DNA of 8,455 nt from a virus (lineage: Duplodnaviria; Heunggongvirae; Uroviricota; Caudoviricetes). The DNA is taken from the IMG/VR virus record IMGVR_UViG_2617270953_000002. One strand, 5' to 3'. This document shows, piece after piece, positions 1-8,455 of the stretch. The position numbers were made by a program, and so were the translations under genes. The notes under the pieces are model-generated. The model was not told the origin of the DNA, ran no database searches, and worked only from the letters and a program-made list of their open reading frames with translations. The first letter of the stretch is position 1, and each line of letters begins with the position of its first letter.

Positions 1-329
1 CGCTGTGGCGGCGTAAGAGGCCCCGGAACGTTATCGTTCACACGGACCGTGGAGGCCAGTACTGTTCAGCAGATTATCAGGCGCAACTGAAGCGGCATAA
101 TCTGCGTGGAAGTATGAGCGCAAAAGGTTGCTGCTACGATAATGCCTGCGTGGAAAGCTTCTTTCATTCGCTGAAAGTGGAATGTATCCATGGAGAACAC
201 TTTATCAGCCGGGAAATAATGCGGGCAACGGTGTTTAATTATATCGAATGTGATTACAATCGGTGGCGGCGGCACAGTTGGTGTGGCGGCCTCAGTCCGG
301 AACAATTTGAAAACAAGAACCTCGCTTAG
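1..329 (+). CDS. IS3-family transposase OrfB (DDE catalytic subunit), C-terminal fragment; 5' end lies outside the window
   Basis: Reading from nt 3 gives ...[54 protein letters not shown]...YNRWRRHS...[11 protein letters not shown], ending at TAG 327-329. The HTDRGxQY, CxDNA..ESFF..LK and YNR.RRHS motifs are the typical C-terminus of IS3-family DDE transposases; the tail resembles IS600. Recognised from memory. Confidence 0.85.
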
Positions 330-359
330 GCCTGTGTCCATATTACGTGGGTAGGATCA
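330..359. repeat. IS right terminal inverted repeat (IRR), ends with CA at nt 359
   Basis: Sequence gcctgtgtccatattacgtgggtaggatca directly follows the transposase stop and has the TG...CA termini and TGGACAC core typical of IS3-group IRs. The exact boundary is inferred, not confirmed against the left end. Confidence 0.6.
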
Positions 360-1551
360 TATGGCCCATAATCTGCGCAACAATACCTGTTGGTACTTCG
401 ACCCATTCAGCGAGGGTCCCAAAACTACGGCGCAATCCGTGCAAGCTGATATGTGGTAACTCCGCGCGAGTTAATGCTCTATTATGTGCTGAACGCGGTT
501 CAATAATTTTGCCACTTTTGCTGTTACTTCTGAAAACCCAATTCTCCTCGTTTGTACCACGATTGGGGATCTCCATCAGTGAGCGTAACAAGTCAGAAAC
601 ATAGGGAGTGAGGGGGATAATTCGCTCGCCTTCGATCTTGTCTTTAATTCTCATGCTTGACCATTTGAAATCTATGTCAGACCAGCGAAGTGAGGAAATT
701 TCTTCACGCCGTGCACCGGTGAGCAAAAGCACTTGGAGATAGGCTGATGCAATGGGATTATTGAGGCTACGCACGGCACTGAACCAGCTTTTGAGCTGTT
801 CTTTTTGTAAGCAATCTCCCGCTTTGCTCGCTGATATTGGAACCATTTTTCTCACGTTATGATCTTGTGCAAGATCGCCATCGATTATTCCCTGATATTT
901 TTTCTGGTAATTAGCCCATTTGATGAATGCACGCAACAGACGGTAGGCATGAGCAGTGACGGTAGGCCGATTTTGTCTCTCTGTACTTAGCCATTCGGCA
1001 ATGTTCTCTGGTGTTAGTTCTGATAATGGTCGGTCGAGCAGGCTAGCCAGTGGCCCAGGTGAGGTTGGGCCCCGGCCTCTTTTTTTACTTTCGCCTCCAC
1101 GACTGGACAAGTTAACGTGATCGGCAATGTAGCGTGCAGAGTAGGGGCGTTTAGTTTTTGCGCTGATTCCGGTTCTCAATTCATCAAGATAATCTTCCCA
1201 AGCGCTTGAAAAGGTTGCCTTCGTTTTACGAGATTCAGCCTGCTGTGATTCCGCTTCAGCAATTTTTTCCGCCTTAGCTATACGCGGATCTATCCCAGTA
1301 TCGATTAATGTTTGCAGTCGCCTGGCTTCGGCCCTCGCATCATCAATCCTCCAATCGTTAATGTTGCCAATGGTCATGCGAAGGGTTTTTCCCGCATACA
1401 GGCTTTGGAATACAAAGGCTTTTGCTCCACGAGTTGCTCGACATGCCAAGCTTGTTACGTCCGTATCCCAAAGGAAAACTTGGTTTTTCCCTTCAGGTAA
1501 AGTAAATCTTCGAATTCGTTCGAAGGTTAGTTTTTGTCTTGAAAGCGCCAT
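343..1551 (-). pseudogene. int: Tyrosine recombinase (phage/island integrase), C-terminally truncated by the IS; the last five codons and stop come from IS sequence
   Basis: 402-aa ORF with ATG at 1551 and AGGAA about 9 nt upstream. It has box I (LLLTGARREEISSLRWSDID) and box II (LHGLRRSFGTLAEW...AQIMGH), but the ORF stops 5 codons after the GH, with the junction at nt 359/360 inside the Met codon. The catalytic Tyr expected about 10 residues later is absent. Confidence 0.75.
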
Positions 1552-1734
1552 TTTTAGGGTTCCTGTTGGGGATTACGGTTTACAGTAATGTAACGGCTGG
1601 TGTAAGTAAATTGAAAGGATAAACATCAACACTCATCAATTTACATCAACAGGTTTTTTGTTTTAATATTATGATTTAAAATGATAAATTTGTGATTTCT
1701 GATGGTTGTTCAAGCAGTTAAAATATAAAAACTT

Positions 1735-1783
1735 CGCATTCGTAATGCGAAGGTCGTAGGTTCGACTCCTATTATCGGCACCA
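1735..1783 (+). other. 3' fragment (about 49 nt) of tRNA-Thr(CGU), thrW-like: anticodon arm, variable loop, T-arm, acceptor 3' strand and CCA. An att core/direct repeat, not a complete tRNA gene
   Basis: cgcattcgtaatgcgaaggtcgtaggttcgactcctattatcggcacca: anticodon loop TTCGTAA (anticodon CGT), T-stem GTAGG/CCTAT, T-loop TTCGACT, acceptor TATCGGC + A + CCA. The preceding bases (aaaatataaaaactt) carry no D-arm or 5' acceptor strand. The 5' boundary is approximate (1733-1737). Confidence 0.8.
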
Positions 1784-1797
1784 TTTAAATCAATAAG

Positions 1798-2958
1798 TTA
1801 CCTCGCATTTAAGTAAACTACGTTCTCCTCTTGTGCCGTATTTGTGCCATTGCGATTTATAATCGCATCGATTTTGCTCGCGTGCTCGGTGAGATGCCCG
1901 GCTGAAAGGTGGGCGTATCTTTGAACCATTTCGAGAGTTTCCCATCCTCCCATCTCTTTAAGCGCAAGAAGAGAGACACCGGACTGAACCAGCCAGCTTG
2001 CCCAGGTATGCCTCAGGTCATGGAAGCGGAAGTTGCTAATGCCTGCCCGCTTTAACGCTCCCTTCCATGCCTTGTTGCTGTCGGTTCTCATCTTCCTTAC
2101 CGCTGCTGTTTTTGTTCCGTCGCTTCGGTAGGCAGGTTTGGTGTGGACAAATACCCATCTCTTATGGAGCCCCTGCTGTTTTCTTAATATCTGGCATGCG
2201 GTTTCGTTAAGAGGAACTCCGATCGCATTGCCAGCTTTTGTTTCATCAGGGTGCATCCATGCCATTTTCTTATCCAGATCGACCTGTGACCACTCAAGGT
2301 CTGTAACGTTGGAACGGCGAAGGCCTGTCGTGATTGCAAACATGACCACAGGGAAGAAATGAGGAGCAATTTCTGCAAACAGGCGCTTCGATTCCTCCTC
2401 TGTAAGCCATCTGATTCGTCCATTCTTAACGCGTGGTGTTGATATTTTGGGCGTCCTGTCAAGCCATCCCCATTCAACAGCCATATTGAGAATAGCGCGA
2501 AGTATTGCCAGATGCCGCGTCTTCGTTCCTTTGCTTGCCAGCTTTGGTTTATACTCCGGCACTGGCTTGCCAAGCCGCAAACACCTGTCCCGGCTCATCT
2601 CCCAGTTCAGGCGATGGCGGCGGTTTTCCATCCCGTCTACCGCCTCCATTATTTTTTCTGTTGTTATGTCAGAGAGAATGGTTTCTCTGAAGTGCAACAT
2701 CCAGAACGATATAATGCTCTTGTCATCATCAATGGACTTCTTATCCGATTTCTCACGCAGCCACCGTATGCAGGCTTCCTTGAATAGCTTTTTCGGTGAT
2801 TCCCCGAGATTTTTTACTCTCCACGCTTCTGCTTTCAGACGATCGTGAAGTTCTTGCGCTTGCCTTTTGTCCGATGTTTCAAGAGAGCGTCTAACTCTTG
2901 ATCCATCTGGCGCGACGAAATCACAGTGCCACGTGCCACCGCGTAGTTTGATTGACAT
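1798..2958 (-). CDS. int: P22-type lambdoid tyrosine integrase, apparently intact
   Basis: 386-aa ORF with ATG at 2958 and AGGAGG 8 nt upstream. N-terminus MSIKLRGGTWHCDF...SDKRQAQELHDRLKAEAWRV and C-terminus FRFHDLRHTWASWLVQSGV...EMGGWETLEMVQRYAHL closely match the phage P22 Int pattern (recalled from memory). The stop lies 14 nt from the tRNA-Thr fragment, as expected for int next to attL. Confidence 0.9.
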   Translation of the reverse strand: MSIKLRGGTWHCDFVAPDGSRVRRSLETSDKRQAQELHDRLKAEAWRVKNLGESPKKLFKEACIRWLREKSDKKSIDDDKSIISFWMLHFRETILSDITTEKIMEAVDGMENRRHRLNWEMSRDRCLRLGKPVPEYKPKLASKGTKTRHLAILRAILNMAVEWGWLDRTPKISTPRVKNGRIRWLTEEESKRLFAEIAPHFFPVVMFAITTGLRRSNVTDLEWSQVDLDKKMAWMHPDETKAGNAIGVPLNETACQILRKQQGLHKRWVFVHTKPAYRSDGTKTAAVRKMRTDSNKAWKGALKRAGISNFRFHDLRHTWASWLVQSGVSLLALKEMGGWETLEMVQRYAHLSAGHLTEHASKIDAIINRNGTNTAQEENVVYLNAR

Positions 2959-3182
2959 GCTTTAACCTCCTGCACATCAACCGCATTCACCGCGCTATTG
3001 TGTCTCACAGACTTAAGCGCCGCAATGCAGTCTGACTTGCAAATGCGATATGGACTTTTAGGTTTATCTGGATTTATCTTTGCGGCCTGAAGTCGTCCAC
3101 TTCGTATCCACTGCGTGATAGTGCCTTTGTCTACCTTCAGATACGATGCTGCCTCTTCACGAGTGAAGATTTCTTCTTCCAC
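2835..3182 (-). CDS. xis: Excisionase (Xis/AlpA-type HTH DNA-binding protein), 115 aa, GTG start
   Basis: N-terminal IFTREEAASYLKVDKGTITQWIRSGRLQAAKI is a typical excisionase helix-turn-helix. It sits immediately upstream of int and overlaps it by 124 nt in another frame. GTG at 3182 is preceded by GGAGA. The length is consistent with P22 Xis being unusually long (about 116 aa, from memory). Confidence 0.65.
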   Translation of the reverse strand: MEEEIFTREEAASYLKVDKGTITQWIRSGRLQAAKINPDKPKSPYRICKSDCIAALKSVRHNSAVNAVDVQEVKACQSNYAVARGTVISSRQMDQELDALLKHRTKGKRKNFTIV

Positions 3183-3267
3183 TTGGAATCTCCATTTATT
3201 GAGTTGGTATTATTGCGGTAGGTCTGGATATCTTGAGAAATGAACAGGCCTCATCGAGTGTGAGGCG

Positions 3268-3612
3268 TTAGTCCTTGCGTAGCTCGCTGATTCTTCTGTA
3301 AGTCTCTGGTGCTTTGTTCCCGTACGTCTTCATTTCAGACTTCAACAGAGCAACGAGTGAATCCCATTCGTTGAGGATTCCTTTGAATGCCGGAACGCGC
3401 TTTGCAACCTTGTCGAATGAATCTCTGATTTCTGGAATCTGCTCAACAAGTGCAACGCATCGTCGGAAATCTGCTGCGTCATGTGGAGCGCCGAAGTGAT
3501 GACCATAGATATTCTTTTTCAGTCCACATGCGATTGAGGCAATAGTTGCGCTACTGATGCCGACATCGCCAGTCGATTGCCATTTCAAAACCTTCATAGC
3601 CAAATCTGACAT
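3268..3612 (-). CDS. Hypothetical prophage accessory protein, 114 aa
   Basis: ORF-track ORF 3268..3639 trimmed to the internal ATG at 3612, which is preceded by GGAGA with about 7 nt spacing. The longer N-terminal extension would run through the terminator hairpin. No family recognised. Confidence 0.6.
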   Translation of the reverse strand: MSDLAMKVLKWQSTGDVGISSATIASIACGLKKNIYGHHFGAPHDAADFRRCVALVEQIPEIRDSFDKVAKRVPAFKGILNEWDSLVALLKSEMKTYGNKAPETYRRISELRKD

Positions 3613-3623
3613 TTCTTGTCTCC

Positions 3624-3648
3624 AATAAAAAACCGCCATCAGGCGGCT
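3624..3648 (-). terminator. Putative intrinsic (rho-independent) terminator on the minus strand
   Basis: Minus strand reads AGCCGCC-tgat-GGCGGTT followed by TTTTTTTATT: a 5-7 bp GC stem, 4-nt loop and U-run, 65-90 nt downstream of the stop of the 3713..3892 gene. The stem is short, so strength is uncertain. Confidence 0.45.
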
Positions 3649-3712
3649 TGGTGTTCTTTCAGTTCTTCAATTCGAATATTGGTTACATTGTTTTCATATA
3701 TGAATAAATAAA

Positions 3713-3892
3713 TTAGCTTTTTTCGTTGCCTTCGCTTTCTTTATTAATTTTGACAAACTCGTTTTTACCACGCTCTCCAAATGCGTCTTTAGAGTCGTTG
3801 TATCCGCAATCGCAGCACACATAATCATCAGACCATCCACGCATTGTTTTTTCTTTTGCAATATTTCCAGAACCGCATTTTGGACAAGACAT
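3713..3892 (-). CDS. Small zinc-ribbon protein (CPxCG ... CCDCG), 59 aa, moron-like
   Basis: ORF 3713..3925 trimmed to the ATG at 3892, which is preceded by GGAGGT about 8 nt upstream. Product MSCPKCGSGN...YVCCDCGYND has two Cys pairs spaced for a zinc ribbon. The locus is strongly AT-rich. Confidence 0.6.
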   Translation of the reverse strand: MSCPKCGSGNIAKEKTMRGWSDDYVCCDCGYNDSKDAFGERGKNEFVKINKESEGNEKS

Positions 3893-3988
3893 ATCACTAC
3901 CTCCAAAGCATGAGTGAGATGACAACGTAACATTGATTGGAGATTAACAATAGATTGCTGATGTAAAAGATATGTATAAGCTTCGCTT

Positions 3989-4627
3989 TCAAAGTGGAGG
4001 CTCTGGTAGCGGCATCCAGTGTGACGGCTCACATACCCCCTCAACACCATTCATGTAAAAGAATTGAAATAACCCATTACCTTTGTGAAACCCTACCATC
4101 TGCTCTTTAGTGTCTGAGCAATAAACCAAAACATCTTCTTCGTTTGGCATTCGATCACTACAGCTTATCCAACCATCAGGAGTTACCGGAGAGTTGCCAC
4201 CGGGAATATTTTCCGGAATATTTTGTTGTGCGTTTTGTGGTTGTTCGGATTTACCCTGAAGCATGGCGGCGCGGCAGGCGTTCCAGCCAGCTGTTCGCCC
4301 AAGCGCGTAAACTTCAGATGGCTCAAGATAATCAATGTCATGCCCATCCTCATCGTCGTTCTCAGGTAATGCAGCAGGTACTACCGGTACTGGCGGAGCG
4401 GCGTAGACTTCAATAATCCCATTATCAATAGGCCATTCCCCATCCTTGATGTAGTCACTTGTGCCGTCAACTTGCTGTTCTGCAATGTGGAATGCGCCAA
4501 TAGGCTCTGCTTCCAGCGATGCCAGTGCGATTTCATAAGCCCGACGCTCAATATTGTCTCGGACGTCCAGGCTGCCTATACGCTCTTTGATTTCTTTAAT
4601 CAGTTCTTTGTCGGTGAACGTTGTCAT
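3989..4627 (-). CDS. DUF551-domain prophage protein with an N-terminal helical domain and Pro-rich/acidic linker, 212 aa
   Basis: ATG at 4627 with AAGGA about 8 nt upstream. The C-terminal segment PDGWISCSDRMPNEEDVLVYC...GVCEPSHWMPLPEPP matches the DUF551 signature common in lambdoid 'ea' regions (from memory). The central linker is AAPPVPVVPAALPENDDEDGHDIDY. Confidence 0.75.
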   Translation of the reverse strand: MTTFTDKELIKEIKERIGSLDVRDNIERRAYEIALASLEAEPIGAFHIAEQQVDGTSDYIKDGEWPIDNGIIEVYAAPPVPVVPAALPENDDEDGHDIDYLEPSEVYALGRTAGWNACRAAMLQGKSEQPQNAQQNIPENIPGGNSPVTPDGWISCSDRMPNEEDVLVYCSDTKEQMVGFHKGNGLFQFFYMNGVEGVCEPSHWMPLPEPPL

Positions 4628-4637
4628 GTGTTAGTCC

Positions 4638-4901
4638 TTATCCTGCTGTGCTTTCAACTGATGAGGGGAATAAAATCTTTTCATCAAATCCGGCATTCAT
4701 ATCATGGACAGCAACACACCAATCCACCGACGAACGATTATCAAGAGCCTCCATGATTTCATCCATGCGGCGTAGGTCATAAAGGTAAATGCTTTTATCG
4801 CCAATGGTGTAAAAACCAATTTTTTTCGGTGATGGACAGCGATCAAGAACGTCCTGTAATTCGCTCAACCATGCTTGTTCTTTTTTTGTCAAAGTTGCCA
4901 T
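4638..4901 (-). CDS. Hypothetical prophage protein, 87 aa
   Basis: ATG at 4901 preceded by AAAGGAGA 6-7 nt upstream; the start lies 1 nt after the TGA of the upstream gene. No family recognised. Confidence 0.65.
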   Translation of the reverse strand: MATLTKKEQAWLSELQDVLDRCPSPKKIGFYTIGDKSIYLYDLRRMDEIMEALDNRSSVDWCVAVHDMNAGFDEKILFPSSVESTAG

Positions 4902-4902
4902 A

Positions 4903-5394
4903 TCACTCTCCTTTGATGCGAATGCCAGTGGTACTCATTCTCCTGATTTCCCAGAGCACACGAGGAACACCACCGTTTCCGACCGGATCGCGCTTACTCC
5001 GCATGGCGACGCTTGATTCCGCCCAGCTTTTTCTTGGAGGAAGCTCTTTCACACGAACAAAACCAGCTGCGCGAAGAGATGCTCCTGATTCATCTGCCTG
5101 GGTGTACGTAATACAACGTTGATAACCCATAGCCTTTGCTGCCCGCCAGACAGCACCATAAAGCGCGCTGTTAGCGTTGCGTTCTCCTGTGGTACATGTG
5201 CGATTTACTTCAAGCGTTAATCCATCGTCCAAATGTCGTGCAACAGGTCGACCAGCTGTCGCCACACCTATCAATTCTCCGGCATTATTTCTCAGACCAA
5301 TGCTGAATTTATGCCCCACTGGTGGTTTATTGTGTCGGTGGTGCTGTGCGATAAATTCCTGCGCCGCTTTCAGCGTTATAGGTGAAATGACCAT
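4903..5394 (-). CDS. Conserved prophage protein, 163 aa; possibly an acyl-CoA N-acyltransferase (GNAT-like) fold, assignment unverified
   Basis: ATG at 5394 overlaps the TGA of the upstream gene (TGATG), with AAGGAGGAG about 9 nt upstream. The ORF-track GTG at 5397 is one codon further upstream. Sequence shows HHRHNKPPVGHKF...LIGVATAGRPVARHLDDGLTLEVNRT...SALYGAVWRAAKAMGYQRCITYTQADESGASLRAAGF. The fold call is pattern intuition only. Confidence 0.7.
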   Translation of the reverse strand: MVISPITLKAAQEFIAQHHRHNKPPVGHKFSIGLRNNAGELIGVATAGRPVARHLDDGLTLEVNRTCTTGERNANSALYGAVWRAAKAMGYQRCITYTQADESGASLRAAGFVRVKELPPRKSWAESSVAMRSKRDPVGNGGVPRVLWEIRRMSTTGIRIKGE

Positions 5395-7994: not shown

Positions 7995-8095
7995 ATGATT
8001 GTTCTCAGAATGGACACGGCCCAAGGAAATAACGCTGATTTAATACTTCTACTCGGGACAAATTAAGGCATACCCGCATTCCTTCGCGGTCGCCA

Positions 8096-8254
8096 TTATG
8101 GCGATACCAGAGAGCTTTCTGCGTGTACATGCGTCTCTGTAACTTGCTCTCCTTCACTGTGGTTGCAAGTGACATGAATATCTCCTTCGTTACCGATTAA
8201 ATCTTTCATCTGACGAATGAATTCTTCGTCTGACCAGTTATCTGTAAAACTCAT
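8096..8254 (-). CDS. Small acidic/His-containing hypothetical protein, 52 aa, in the position occupied by kil in P22/lambda
   Basis: ATG at 8254 overlaps the TGA of the cIII-like gene (ATGA). Product MSFTDNWSDEEFIRQMKDLIGNEGDIHVTCNHSEGEQVTETHVHAESSLVSP. The functional call is positional only. Confidence 0.5.
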   Translation of the reverse strand: MSFTDNWSDEEFIRQMKDLIGNEGDIHVTCNHSEGEQVTETHVHAESSLVSP

Positions 8255-8421
8255 GGGCGGCCTTGTTGTTTCAAAATATCCCAAAGCTTTTCGAGCAAAC
8301 TTTTCATTCTTGGTTGTTTAAAGTCTGCTCCGGTTAGAATGTTTTTTCGTGAATGCTGTACCGATAAAATCGGGTTGAAAGGGCGAACCGATGCCGCCCC
8401 TGCAATAGCGAACTGTTGCAT
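8251..8421 (-). CDS. cIII: cIII-like small regulatory protein (candidate FtsH inhibitor), 56 aa; below the ORF-track size cutoff
   Basis: Hand translation of the minus strand gives ATG (8421) to TGA (8251): MQQFAIAGAASVRPFNPILSVQHSRKNILTGADFKQPRMKSLLEKLWDILKQQGRP, with strong GAAGGAG about 7 nt upstream. N-terminal MQ.FAIAG and C-terminal LL..L.DIL.Q.G.P resemble lambda CIII (MQYAIAG...RLIDILNQPGVP, from memory). The position upstream of kil/erf fits lambdoid order. Confidence 0.55.
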   Translation of the reverse strand: MQQFAIAGAASVRPFNPILSVQHSRKNILTGADFKQPRMKSLLEKLWDILKQQGRP

Positions 8422-8455
8422 AGGATGCTCCTTCTGTTTGATTGCATAACGAAAA

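Follow-up and report, generated by a model that had tools for sequence, protein, structure and literature searches.

The locus and the boundaries of the gene

The window analysed here, the whole 8,455-nucleotide (nt) stretch of a Caudoviricetes virus (IMG/VR record IMGVR_UViG_2617270953_000002), carries on its minus strand, at 8251..8421, an open reading frame (ORF) of 56 codons plus a TGA stop. To judge from its sequence, this ORF appears to encode a divergent protein of the CIII type, belonging to a third sequence class. CIII is a lysogeny factor that shields the CII activator from the FtsH protease; it is the textbook phage inhibitor of FtsH and sets the bias between lysis and lysogeny. The ATG of the ORF occupies 8421-8419 and its TGA 8253-8251, and translation of 8251-8421 on the minus strand gives MQQFAIAGAASVRPFNPILSVQHSRKNILTGADFKQPRMKSLLEKLWDILKQQGRP, 56 amino acids (aa). 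A Shine-Dalgarno (SD) sequence, GAAGGAG, lies at 8428..8434 on the same strand with a 6-nt spacer to the ATG, and its AAGGAG is placed as in the cIII genes of lambda and HK97. At the other end, the TGA shares bases with the start codon of the following ORF, 8096..8254 (ATG at 8254-8252), as an ATGA stop/start overlap at 8251..8254 (minus strand). The original prediction, made from the letters of the window, had described an ORF with these signals and called it cIII-like; the arrangement is confirmed at 8251..8421.

The window holds 100 ORFs of at least 30 aa, and a 56-aa ORF by itself means little. This one is nevertheless far beyond chance, given its match over residues 1-56 to PHROG 550 (E = 1e-22), the occurrence of an identical protein in more than 30 phage records, and its excess of synonymous changes. 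The reading frame is open upstream as far as the window end, and some databases list a 91-aa version (P0003; mEpX1 gp36). We rejected this longer start: the extension crosses a rho-independent terminator hairpin, annotated as such in mEpX1, as well as the non-coding leader of lambda and HK97 cIII, and the 56-aa start is therefore the correct one.

The 3' end of that common leader lies in the window at 8422..8455 (minus strand), where it is identical to HK542; the remainder falls past the window end. In HK542, the 120 nt upstream of the gene, including the part that corresponds to window 8422-8455, are identical to the HK97 cIII leader at 110 of 114 positions and to the lambda cIII leader at 62 of 76, terminator-like hairpin and AAGGAG SD included. 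Two terminator-like hairpins can be seen in the shared leader at 3555-3612 (minus strand) of L001 (L numbers denote the loci compared), and the window itself holds only the T-run and following bases of this region, at 8445-8455. The first hairpin is GCCCTCCAGTGTGAGGGC and the second AACGCTTCAyTCGAGGCGTT, each followed by a T-run. Pairing in the second survives in L008/L009, where a double change turns G:C into A:T, and L010/L011 have another hairpin (AATGG..CCATT) at this place.

Conservation and distribution

The ORF is a genuine, conserved small gene of a lambdoid prophage. The phage records with the identical protein include HK542, HK140, mEpX1, and SPN9CC, and many phages of Salmonella and E. 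coli carry the gene. A 205-nt query comprising the gene and 34 nt upstream was present in 349 of 5426 complete E. coli genomes (~6%). Diverged relatives, with identities of 41-84%, occur in phages and prophages of Enterobacter, Atlantibacter, Buttiauxella, Hafnia, Erwinia, and Yersinia. Conservation in relatives, on which the original prediction depended, thus extends from 100% identical copies in several phages to diverged copies in further Enterobacterales. The family is compact: when 1.84 billion representative proteins were searched exhaustively with a profile, only 38 clusters came back, mostly small proteins of ~53-63 aa, the exceptions being truncated or N-terminally extended ORF calls. 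Three long repeat-containing proteins among the 38 are chance matches.

Comparison of the window with L008 gives 28 synonymous and 13 non-synonymous changes over the gene, and the ratio of non-synonymous to synonymous substitution (dN/dS) against diverged DNA copies is 0.03-0.3. These changes are unevenly placed. Codons 1-15 (8377..8421, minus strand) are invariant at the nucleotide level across lineages, with 0 changes among the window, L008/L009, and L012, and the codons downstream are saturated with synonymous changes; codons 16-56 differ between the window and L008 by 22 synonymous and 9 non-synonymous changed codons. Further upstream the leader of L012 is unrelated, so the invariant island can be delimited as running from the SD to +45.

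Relation to the known CIII families

In their survey, Kobiler et al. (2007; PMC1838920) recognized two sequence classes of CIII. Our comparisons suggest that the window protein is a distant CIII homolog forming a third class beside lambda/P22 and HK022/HK97, and that it lies outside both curated families. The PHROG 550 profile ('CIII anti-termination') that matches the window protein also takes in lambda CIII (1.4e-31) and HK97 CIII (2.6e-13). In profile-profile comparison with hhalign, the window family and the lambda family align with a probability of 93-94% (E = 4e-7 to 9e-8); the lambda class and the accepted HK97 class align with 92% (E = 6e-7). Since the accepted HK97 class is equally far from lambda CIII, divergence on this scale fits CIII identity. 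Against HK97-type CIII, hhalign aligns only the N-terminal 20 residues of the window family, at 45% probability.

Searching every ORF of the retrieved loci with hidden Markov models (HMMs) gives the same picture, in that the lambda-type and window-family models are reciprocally each other's best outside matches. The lambda-type model reaches the Yersinia member (2.6e-5) and the Hafnia member (1.9e-3) alongside HK97 CIII (2.2e-3), and the window-family model finds lambda CIII as its best outside match (3.5e-3). The N-terminus of the Yersinia phage member, MQYAIAGYPASGC, is almost identical to that of lambda, MQYAIAGWPVAGC. The similarity expected by the original prediction is therefore significant at the profile level, but weak in pairwise comparison, with BLASTP values of E = 0.025 against lambda CIII and 0.055 against P22 C3. 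With tblastn against a phage collection (E <= 10), the window protein reached none of the lambda, P22, and HK97 cIII genes, and an NCBIfam scan gave no match.

Three segments are conserved within the family: an N-terminal M-x-x-A-I-A-G, a central F-[DN]-x-I-x-S-[IV]-[QE]-[HF]-x3-N-I-L-T-[GS]-x-[DS]-F, and a C-terminal K-S-x-L-x-x-L-x-x-x-L-x-Q-x-G-x-P. The first, with its conserved glycine, is of the type that is a hallmark of CIII, and the alignment joins both N-termini and tails, EKLWDILKQQGRP with KRLIDILNQPGVP. The resemblances to lambda CIII first noticed by eye, an N-terminal MQ.[FY]AIAG and a C-terminal L.DIL.Q.G.P, are real. Lambda CIII and P22 C3 (PF02061; NCBI name 'protease FtsH-inhibitory lysogeny factor CIII') share with the window protein the N-terminal M-x-[YF]-A-I-A-G and the C-terminal [KR]-L-x-D-I-L-x-Q-x-G-x-P, and are similar in size (52-56 aa). 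They differ at the very end, where lambda CIII has a C-terminal tail and the window protein stops at G-R-P.

The middle of the protein is less easily reconciled. The central motif of residues 20-34 (SVQHSRKNILTGADF; 8320..8364, minus strand), in which T30, A32, and F34 are invariant, is specific to the family, and in its general form (SIQHSRxNILTGADF) is absent from lambda-type and HK97-type CIII. The essential region of lambda CIII has been defined experimentally as residues 14-37 (PMC1838920). Of its invariant residues, E-S-L-L-E-R-I-T-R-K-L-R-x-G-W-K-R, the distal part alone aligns, K25-L37 with R38-L50, and some ten extra residues (SVQHSRKNILTGADFKQP) stand where lambda has the invariant ESLLERITRKLR. 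Alanine substitution of S17, R24, L26, R27, or R32 abolishes the function of lambda CIII (PMC1838920). In the hhalign register, which is uncertain in the middle of the protein, S17, L26, R27, and R32 correspond to S20, M39, K40, and K45, so that four of the five positions are identical or conservative.

Residues 38-55 (RMKSLLEKLWDILKQQGR; 8257..8310, minus strand) form a predicted, moderately amphipathic C-terminal helix that hhalign aligns with K25-V42 of lambda CIII. An AlphaFold2 (AF2) model built on the family alignment is of low confidence, with a predicted local distance difference test score (pLDDT) of 61; its single helix of any length spans residues 42-52, and the mean pLDDT over residues 41-50 of the window protein is 81. 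The lambda-type control has one helix at 18-38 (pLDDT 84-90), in agreement with the experimentally defined essential region (PMC1838920). The amphipathic helix that the original prediction proposed as a check is thus predicted at the C-terminus, but is about half the length of lambda's and weaker. A search of PDB sequences with the family profile returned only chance-level matches (E = 0.06).

A predicted RNA switch at the translation start

The invariance of the first 15 codons coincides with a predicted structure in the mRNA. A hairpin is predicted at +17..+47 (8375..8405, minus strand), with the core AGGGGCGGC-AUCG-G-UUCGCCCUU, starting at the conserved Ala-Gly codons. Its 3' arm includes an anti-SD sequence, CGCCCUUUC, at +37..+45 (8377..8385, minus strand), which is complementary to the SD and gives a calculated duplex of -8.1 kcal/mol (lambda, -7.4). 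Two alternative pairings, of the anti-SD with the SD or within the coding hairpin, are both predicted computationally.

We folded +10..+57 of 14 distinct sequences: 11 window-family genes, the cIII genes of lambda and HK97 and, as an independent test, c3 of P22 (the window, L002 [lambda], L004 [HK97], L024 [P22], L005-L007, and L017-L023). A hairpin of ~9-14 bp at ~+17..+47, covering codons 6-16 with the conserved Gly codon at its start, is predicted in all 14. Stem sequences differ widely, and the minimum free energy (MFE) of the segment ranges from -12.7 to -20.8 kcal/mol; 20 control genes average -7.3. Native sequences are more stable than their synonymous recodings (13 sequences; combined p = 6e-6), with p = 0.98 for the control segment +58..+105. 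In 15/15 genes the 3' arm can base-pair with the SD region, with a mean duplex energy of -6.9 kcal/mol, against -3.1 and -4.1 kcal/mol for control segments (p = 3e-4 and 6e-4).

Other approaches are less decisive. The MFE structure of the window has a small local hairpin at the SD, and MFE and pair probabilities are less clear on SD occlusion than the duplex test. RNAalifold finds weak structure in the 5' coding region on one MAFFT alignment and none on another, the arms shifting by 1-3 nt between sequences; the case for the hairpin accordingly rests on per-sequence folding, synonymous recoding, and control genes. An Rfam scan at the gene start found no family. For lambda, this SD/anti-SD pairing is drawn in Rfam RF01804 (Lambda_thermo, the lambda cIII thermoregulator): the SD pairs with a C/U-rich stretch at ~+37..+45, or this stretch is held with the Ala-Gly codons. 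At E <= 10 its covariance model fails to match the window, L001, HK542, HK97, or the Yersinia phage (the lambda control scores 88.5 bits). Since P22 c3 and HK97 cIII are also unmatched, the model is too narrow to exclude anything, and the likeness to RF01804 is one of architecture and not of sequence.

Translation of lambda cIII reportedly depends on a pair of alternative structures in its mRNA as well as on RNase III (Altuvia et al. 1987, 1989, as cited in PMC2777011, PMC4166951, and PMC4908349). On the basis of predicted folding, the window gene appears to keep this lambda-type switch architecture, and the arrangement of hairpin and anti-SD seems to generalize the mRNA switch of lambda cIII. 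The N-terminal residues of CIII are conserved, and their function was called unknown by Kobiler et al. (PMC1838920); an RNA switch kept in codons 6-16 would explain this conservation. Part of the RNA finding may already be in print for lambda, HK022, and P22.

The genomic slot

The position of the gene is that of cIII. Homology of the window to HK97 ends at 8254, the start of the next gene, and HK97 has kil and cIII in the corresponding place. Matches to HK97, HK106, CUS-3, Stx1a phages, and many E. coli prophages all end at 8254, which marks it as a mosaic junction, a clean recombination joint at a gene boundary. Given where homology to HK97 ends, the ORF can be described as a cassette that takes the place of cIII (plus kil) and has its boundaries at the SD and at the stop codon. 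The HK022/HK97/H-19B type of CIII (PF08134) resembles it in the near-identical leader, the slot, and the position of the hairpin; HK97 differs in having a CIII with a long amphipathic helix and kil as the next gene, and the window gene stands in for both. Lambda and P22 are likewise similar in leader, P_L-operon slot, strong SD, the codon 6-16 hairpin with its anti-SD, and co-occurrence with cII, but have an overlapping kil downstream, whereas the window gene lacks kil and overlaps its next neighbor by ATGA.

This slot is shared across the contexts compared, namely HK542, mEpX1, Gally, the Hafnia, Erwinia, and Yersinia phages, and eleven metagenomic or genomic loci. Wherever the context extends to the immunity region, the gene belongs to the leftward early operon and is preceded by a cI-type repressor gene; it follows N wherever N is recognized, and in all contexts it stands just before the recombination genes. 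The recombination module next door varies (Erf, RecT, Rad52, or DUF3799 with RecT), and the intervening small genes are mutually unrelated. A cII gene is present in 13/14 contexts reaching the cro-O region. Of the carriers of the gene, four complete phage genomes and ten loci were examined; this small sample contained neither a lambda-type nor an HK97-type cIII, and no kil homolog. In L023, positions 1-5186 show a cro-like gene directly before a replication gene with a DnaT domain, and this prophage may break the association of cIII with cII.

Interpretation and alternative explanations

Coding status, homology, slot, and co-occurrence pattern are established, and the RNA elements are supported computationally. 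We consider it probable, at about 0.65, that this is a CIII-type gene in the cIII slot of the P_L operon, encoding a distant CIII homolog with a lambda-like mRNA switch and a CIII-like action. From the homology, the slot, the exclusivity with the other cIII classes, and the co-occurrence with cII, we infer that the protein inhibits FtsH and stabilizes CII. The cIII-like reading of the original prediction is thus supported, both similarity to CIII and conservation among related phages having been found.

A model of its action can be outlined. N-antiterminated P_L transcripts would read through the leader, and translation would start from the strong SD, tuned by the equilibrium between the hairpin and the anti-SD/SD duplex; both steps have computational support. 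In one conformation the codon 6-16 hairpin would hold the anti-SD and leave the SD free, and in the other the anti-SD would pair with the SD. The C-terminal amphipathic helix, and possibly the central motif, may then engage FtsH/HflKC as a competitive inhibitor and substrate, so that CII would be transiently stabilized and lysogeny favored. SpoVM of Bacillus, a short amphipathic helical peptide that inhibits FtsH (PMC1838920), may offer a parallel in a different biological context, although no relationship in sequence is expected.

Several observations weigh against this interpretation. Neither PF02061 nor PF08134 matches the window protein even at E <= 10, although lambda and HK97 CIII match their own families at ~1e-30 (lambda CIII scores 105 bits on PF02061), and precomputed PF02061.22 assignments occur in no family member. 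The exhaustive HMM search of 1.84 billion proteins recovered no lambda-type CIII, so that sequence-to-profile searching fails to bridge the classes. The profile-profile signal is mostly N-terminal, where codons are constrained by RNA: the N-terminal 13 columns alone give E = 4e-8, and once the first 13 residues are removed, 13 tail columns align with E = 5e-4 and 31% probability. The lambda invariant ESLLERITRKLR, the first half of the essential region, is replaced by an unrelated motif containing proline and glycine, and lambda R24 pairs with a proline, P37. The predicted helix has 11 residues as opposed to 21 in the lambda-type control. Its hydrophobic moment (residues 38-55) is 0.60, a value that 84/2000 shuffles reach, compared with 0.83 for lambda CIII and 0.72 for HK97 CIII (0/2000 shuffles each). 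The most distant member (P0136, 61 aa; L023, GCA_024793925.1) comes from a context with no detectable cII. Finally, our literature searches found no paper describing or testing this class, and no experiment on it.

Much of this could also be accommodated if the cIII slot and the 5' RNA module had been kept while the protein body came to be aimed at another host target, an explanation that we regard as possible, at odds of well under one in two. Candidates would include a Kil-like division inhibitor, a function directed at another protease or adaptor, or anti-defense. RNA constraint would account for the common N-terminus, without which the similarity to lambda CIII shrinks to 13 columns; the best conserved part of the protein is the central motif, which is not matched by anything in known CIII; compared with HK97, the cassette displaces kil as well as cIII, with no kil homolog in the carrier phages; and one member lacks a detectable cII. 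However, the C-terminal match of KLWDILKQQGRP and RLIDILNQPGVP falls outside the RNA-constrained block and recurs family-wide as ..FLNQPGDP, exclusivity with both canonical cIII classes is strict, and cII is nearly always present. Nor does the protein match Kil families or PADLOC models; a PADLOC scan of the 56-aa sequence found nothing.

A related suggestion, slightly more doubtful still, is that the family is more than a diverged CIII and that the central S-I-Q-H-x3-N-I-L-T-G-A-D-F represents a new interaction module. The likeness to CIII would then be confined to the RNA-dictated N-terminus and the 13-residue C-terminal tail, and the target of the protein would be either FtsH/HflKC, inhibited by another mechanism, or some other host component, with the role of the missing kil perhaps covered as well.

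An accessory role in the Erf recombination module, through translational coupling to the arf-like and erf genes, seems very unlikely. The ATGA overlap with the next gene would be consistent with it, as would the constant position as first gene upstream of the recombination genes and the placement two small genes from erf also in the Hafnia, Erwinia, and Yersinia phages. But the gene stays while the recombinase changes (Erf, RecT, Rad52, or a DUF3799 exonuclease with RecT) and the small genes between are unrelated, and canonical cIII holds the same position relative to the recombination genes in lambda, P22, and HK97; an Erf cofactor as such was rejected on the variation in recombinase type. 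That the conservation stems solely from RNA or DNA elements such as the leader and hairpin, with the ORF incidental, can be dismissed almost entirely: several annotations omit the ORF (phage Gally) and the first 45 nt are constrained at the nucleotide level, but codons 16-56 are rich in synonymous and poor in non-synonymous changes, frame and a length of 53-63 aa are kept across 38 diverged clusters, and the SD is strong and ideally spaced. A CIII-type gene in the cIII slot therefore remains our preferred reading.

Neighboring genes and other elements of the window

The next ORF, at 8096..8254 (minus strand), encodes 52 aa corresponding to the N-terminal part of HK97 gp42.1 (88% identity; phrog_2123). 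It resembles Arf weakly, through an SDEEFI match (E = 0.047), and is not Kil. It is followed by a 56-aa part of gp42 at 8005-8175 (minus strand; phrog_1723), and then by Erf (PF04404). The order c3-kil-arf-erf holds for P22, and the order in the window is cIII-like, arf-like, gp42-like, erf. The original prediction placed the gene upstream of a kil-position gene and erf, as in P22; erf does lie downstream, but the Kil identity of the adjacent gene was rejected in favor of an Arf/gp42.1-like one. Neither this neighbor nor the 56-aa ORF has similarity to the Kil types of lambda, HK97, or P22.

Within 8005-8254 (minus strand), the window has, in comparison with HK97, lost a single base at each of two points near 8120-8127, so that the 83-aa gp42.1 frame is broken into a pair of overlapping ORFs. 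The split form is evidently common, since each half matches a PHROG of its own (2123 and 1723), and HK542 has yet another C-terminus. The split may reflect frameshifting, decay, or a fusion in HK97.

At the opposite end of the window, an IS3-family transposase C-terminal fragment (114-329, plus strand) is followed by two tandem tyrosine-integrase genes (343-1551 and 1798-2958, both minus strand), and these by an excisionase-like gene (2835-3182), an order that points to a stack of two integrative elements at a single attachment site. An Rfam tRNA model matches 1708-1780 (plus strand) with 36.3 bits and a mispaired acceptor stem; ARAGORN called no tRNA in the window. The integrase gene 1798-2958 ends 18 nt away, and the stretch is probably a tRNA-derived remnant of the prophage attachment site. 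Separately, positions 233-419 (plus strand) of L007, from Yersinia phage vB_YenM_30.14, match positions 113-308 of the bacterial small-subunit (SSU) rRNA model (47 bits, E = 1.3e-10), just under the gathering score, inside an annotated hypothetical coding sequence of the early-left region.

Annotation and significance

The gene has been named before in a few places, as 'putative cIII protein' (mEpX1) and 'CIII-like protease inhibitor' (Hafnia phage). The PHROG-derived RefSeq name, 'CIII anti-termination', is a misnomer that misstates the function of CIII. Most other records call it 'hypothetical protein' or leave it unannotated, with 'hypothetical protein' assigned by the Prokaryotic Genome Annotation Pipeline (PGAP) in the E. 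coli records listed. In mEpX1 it appears as an over-extended 91-aa coding sequence (26895-27170) with an annotated terminator inside, P0003 being likewise 91 aa, and in Gally (25187-25354) it is absent from the annotation. Because Pfam and the NCBI annotation pipeline miss the gene, it is mostly labeled hypothetical, mis-extended to 91 aa, or passed over.

The gene is a divergent variant of a known gene type, which is unsurprising in mosaic lambdoid phages, and the practical consequence is modest: lambdoid prophages can be annotated better. Should the protein indeed inhibit FtsH, three very different peptides would perform one job, and their comparison would narrow the requirements of FtsH inhibition. 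What these phage inhibitors have in common would then be an amphipathic helix, short and basic, with Q-x-G-x-P at its end.

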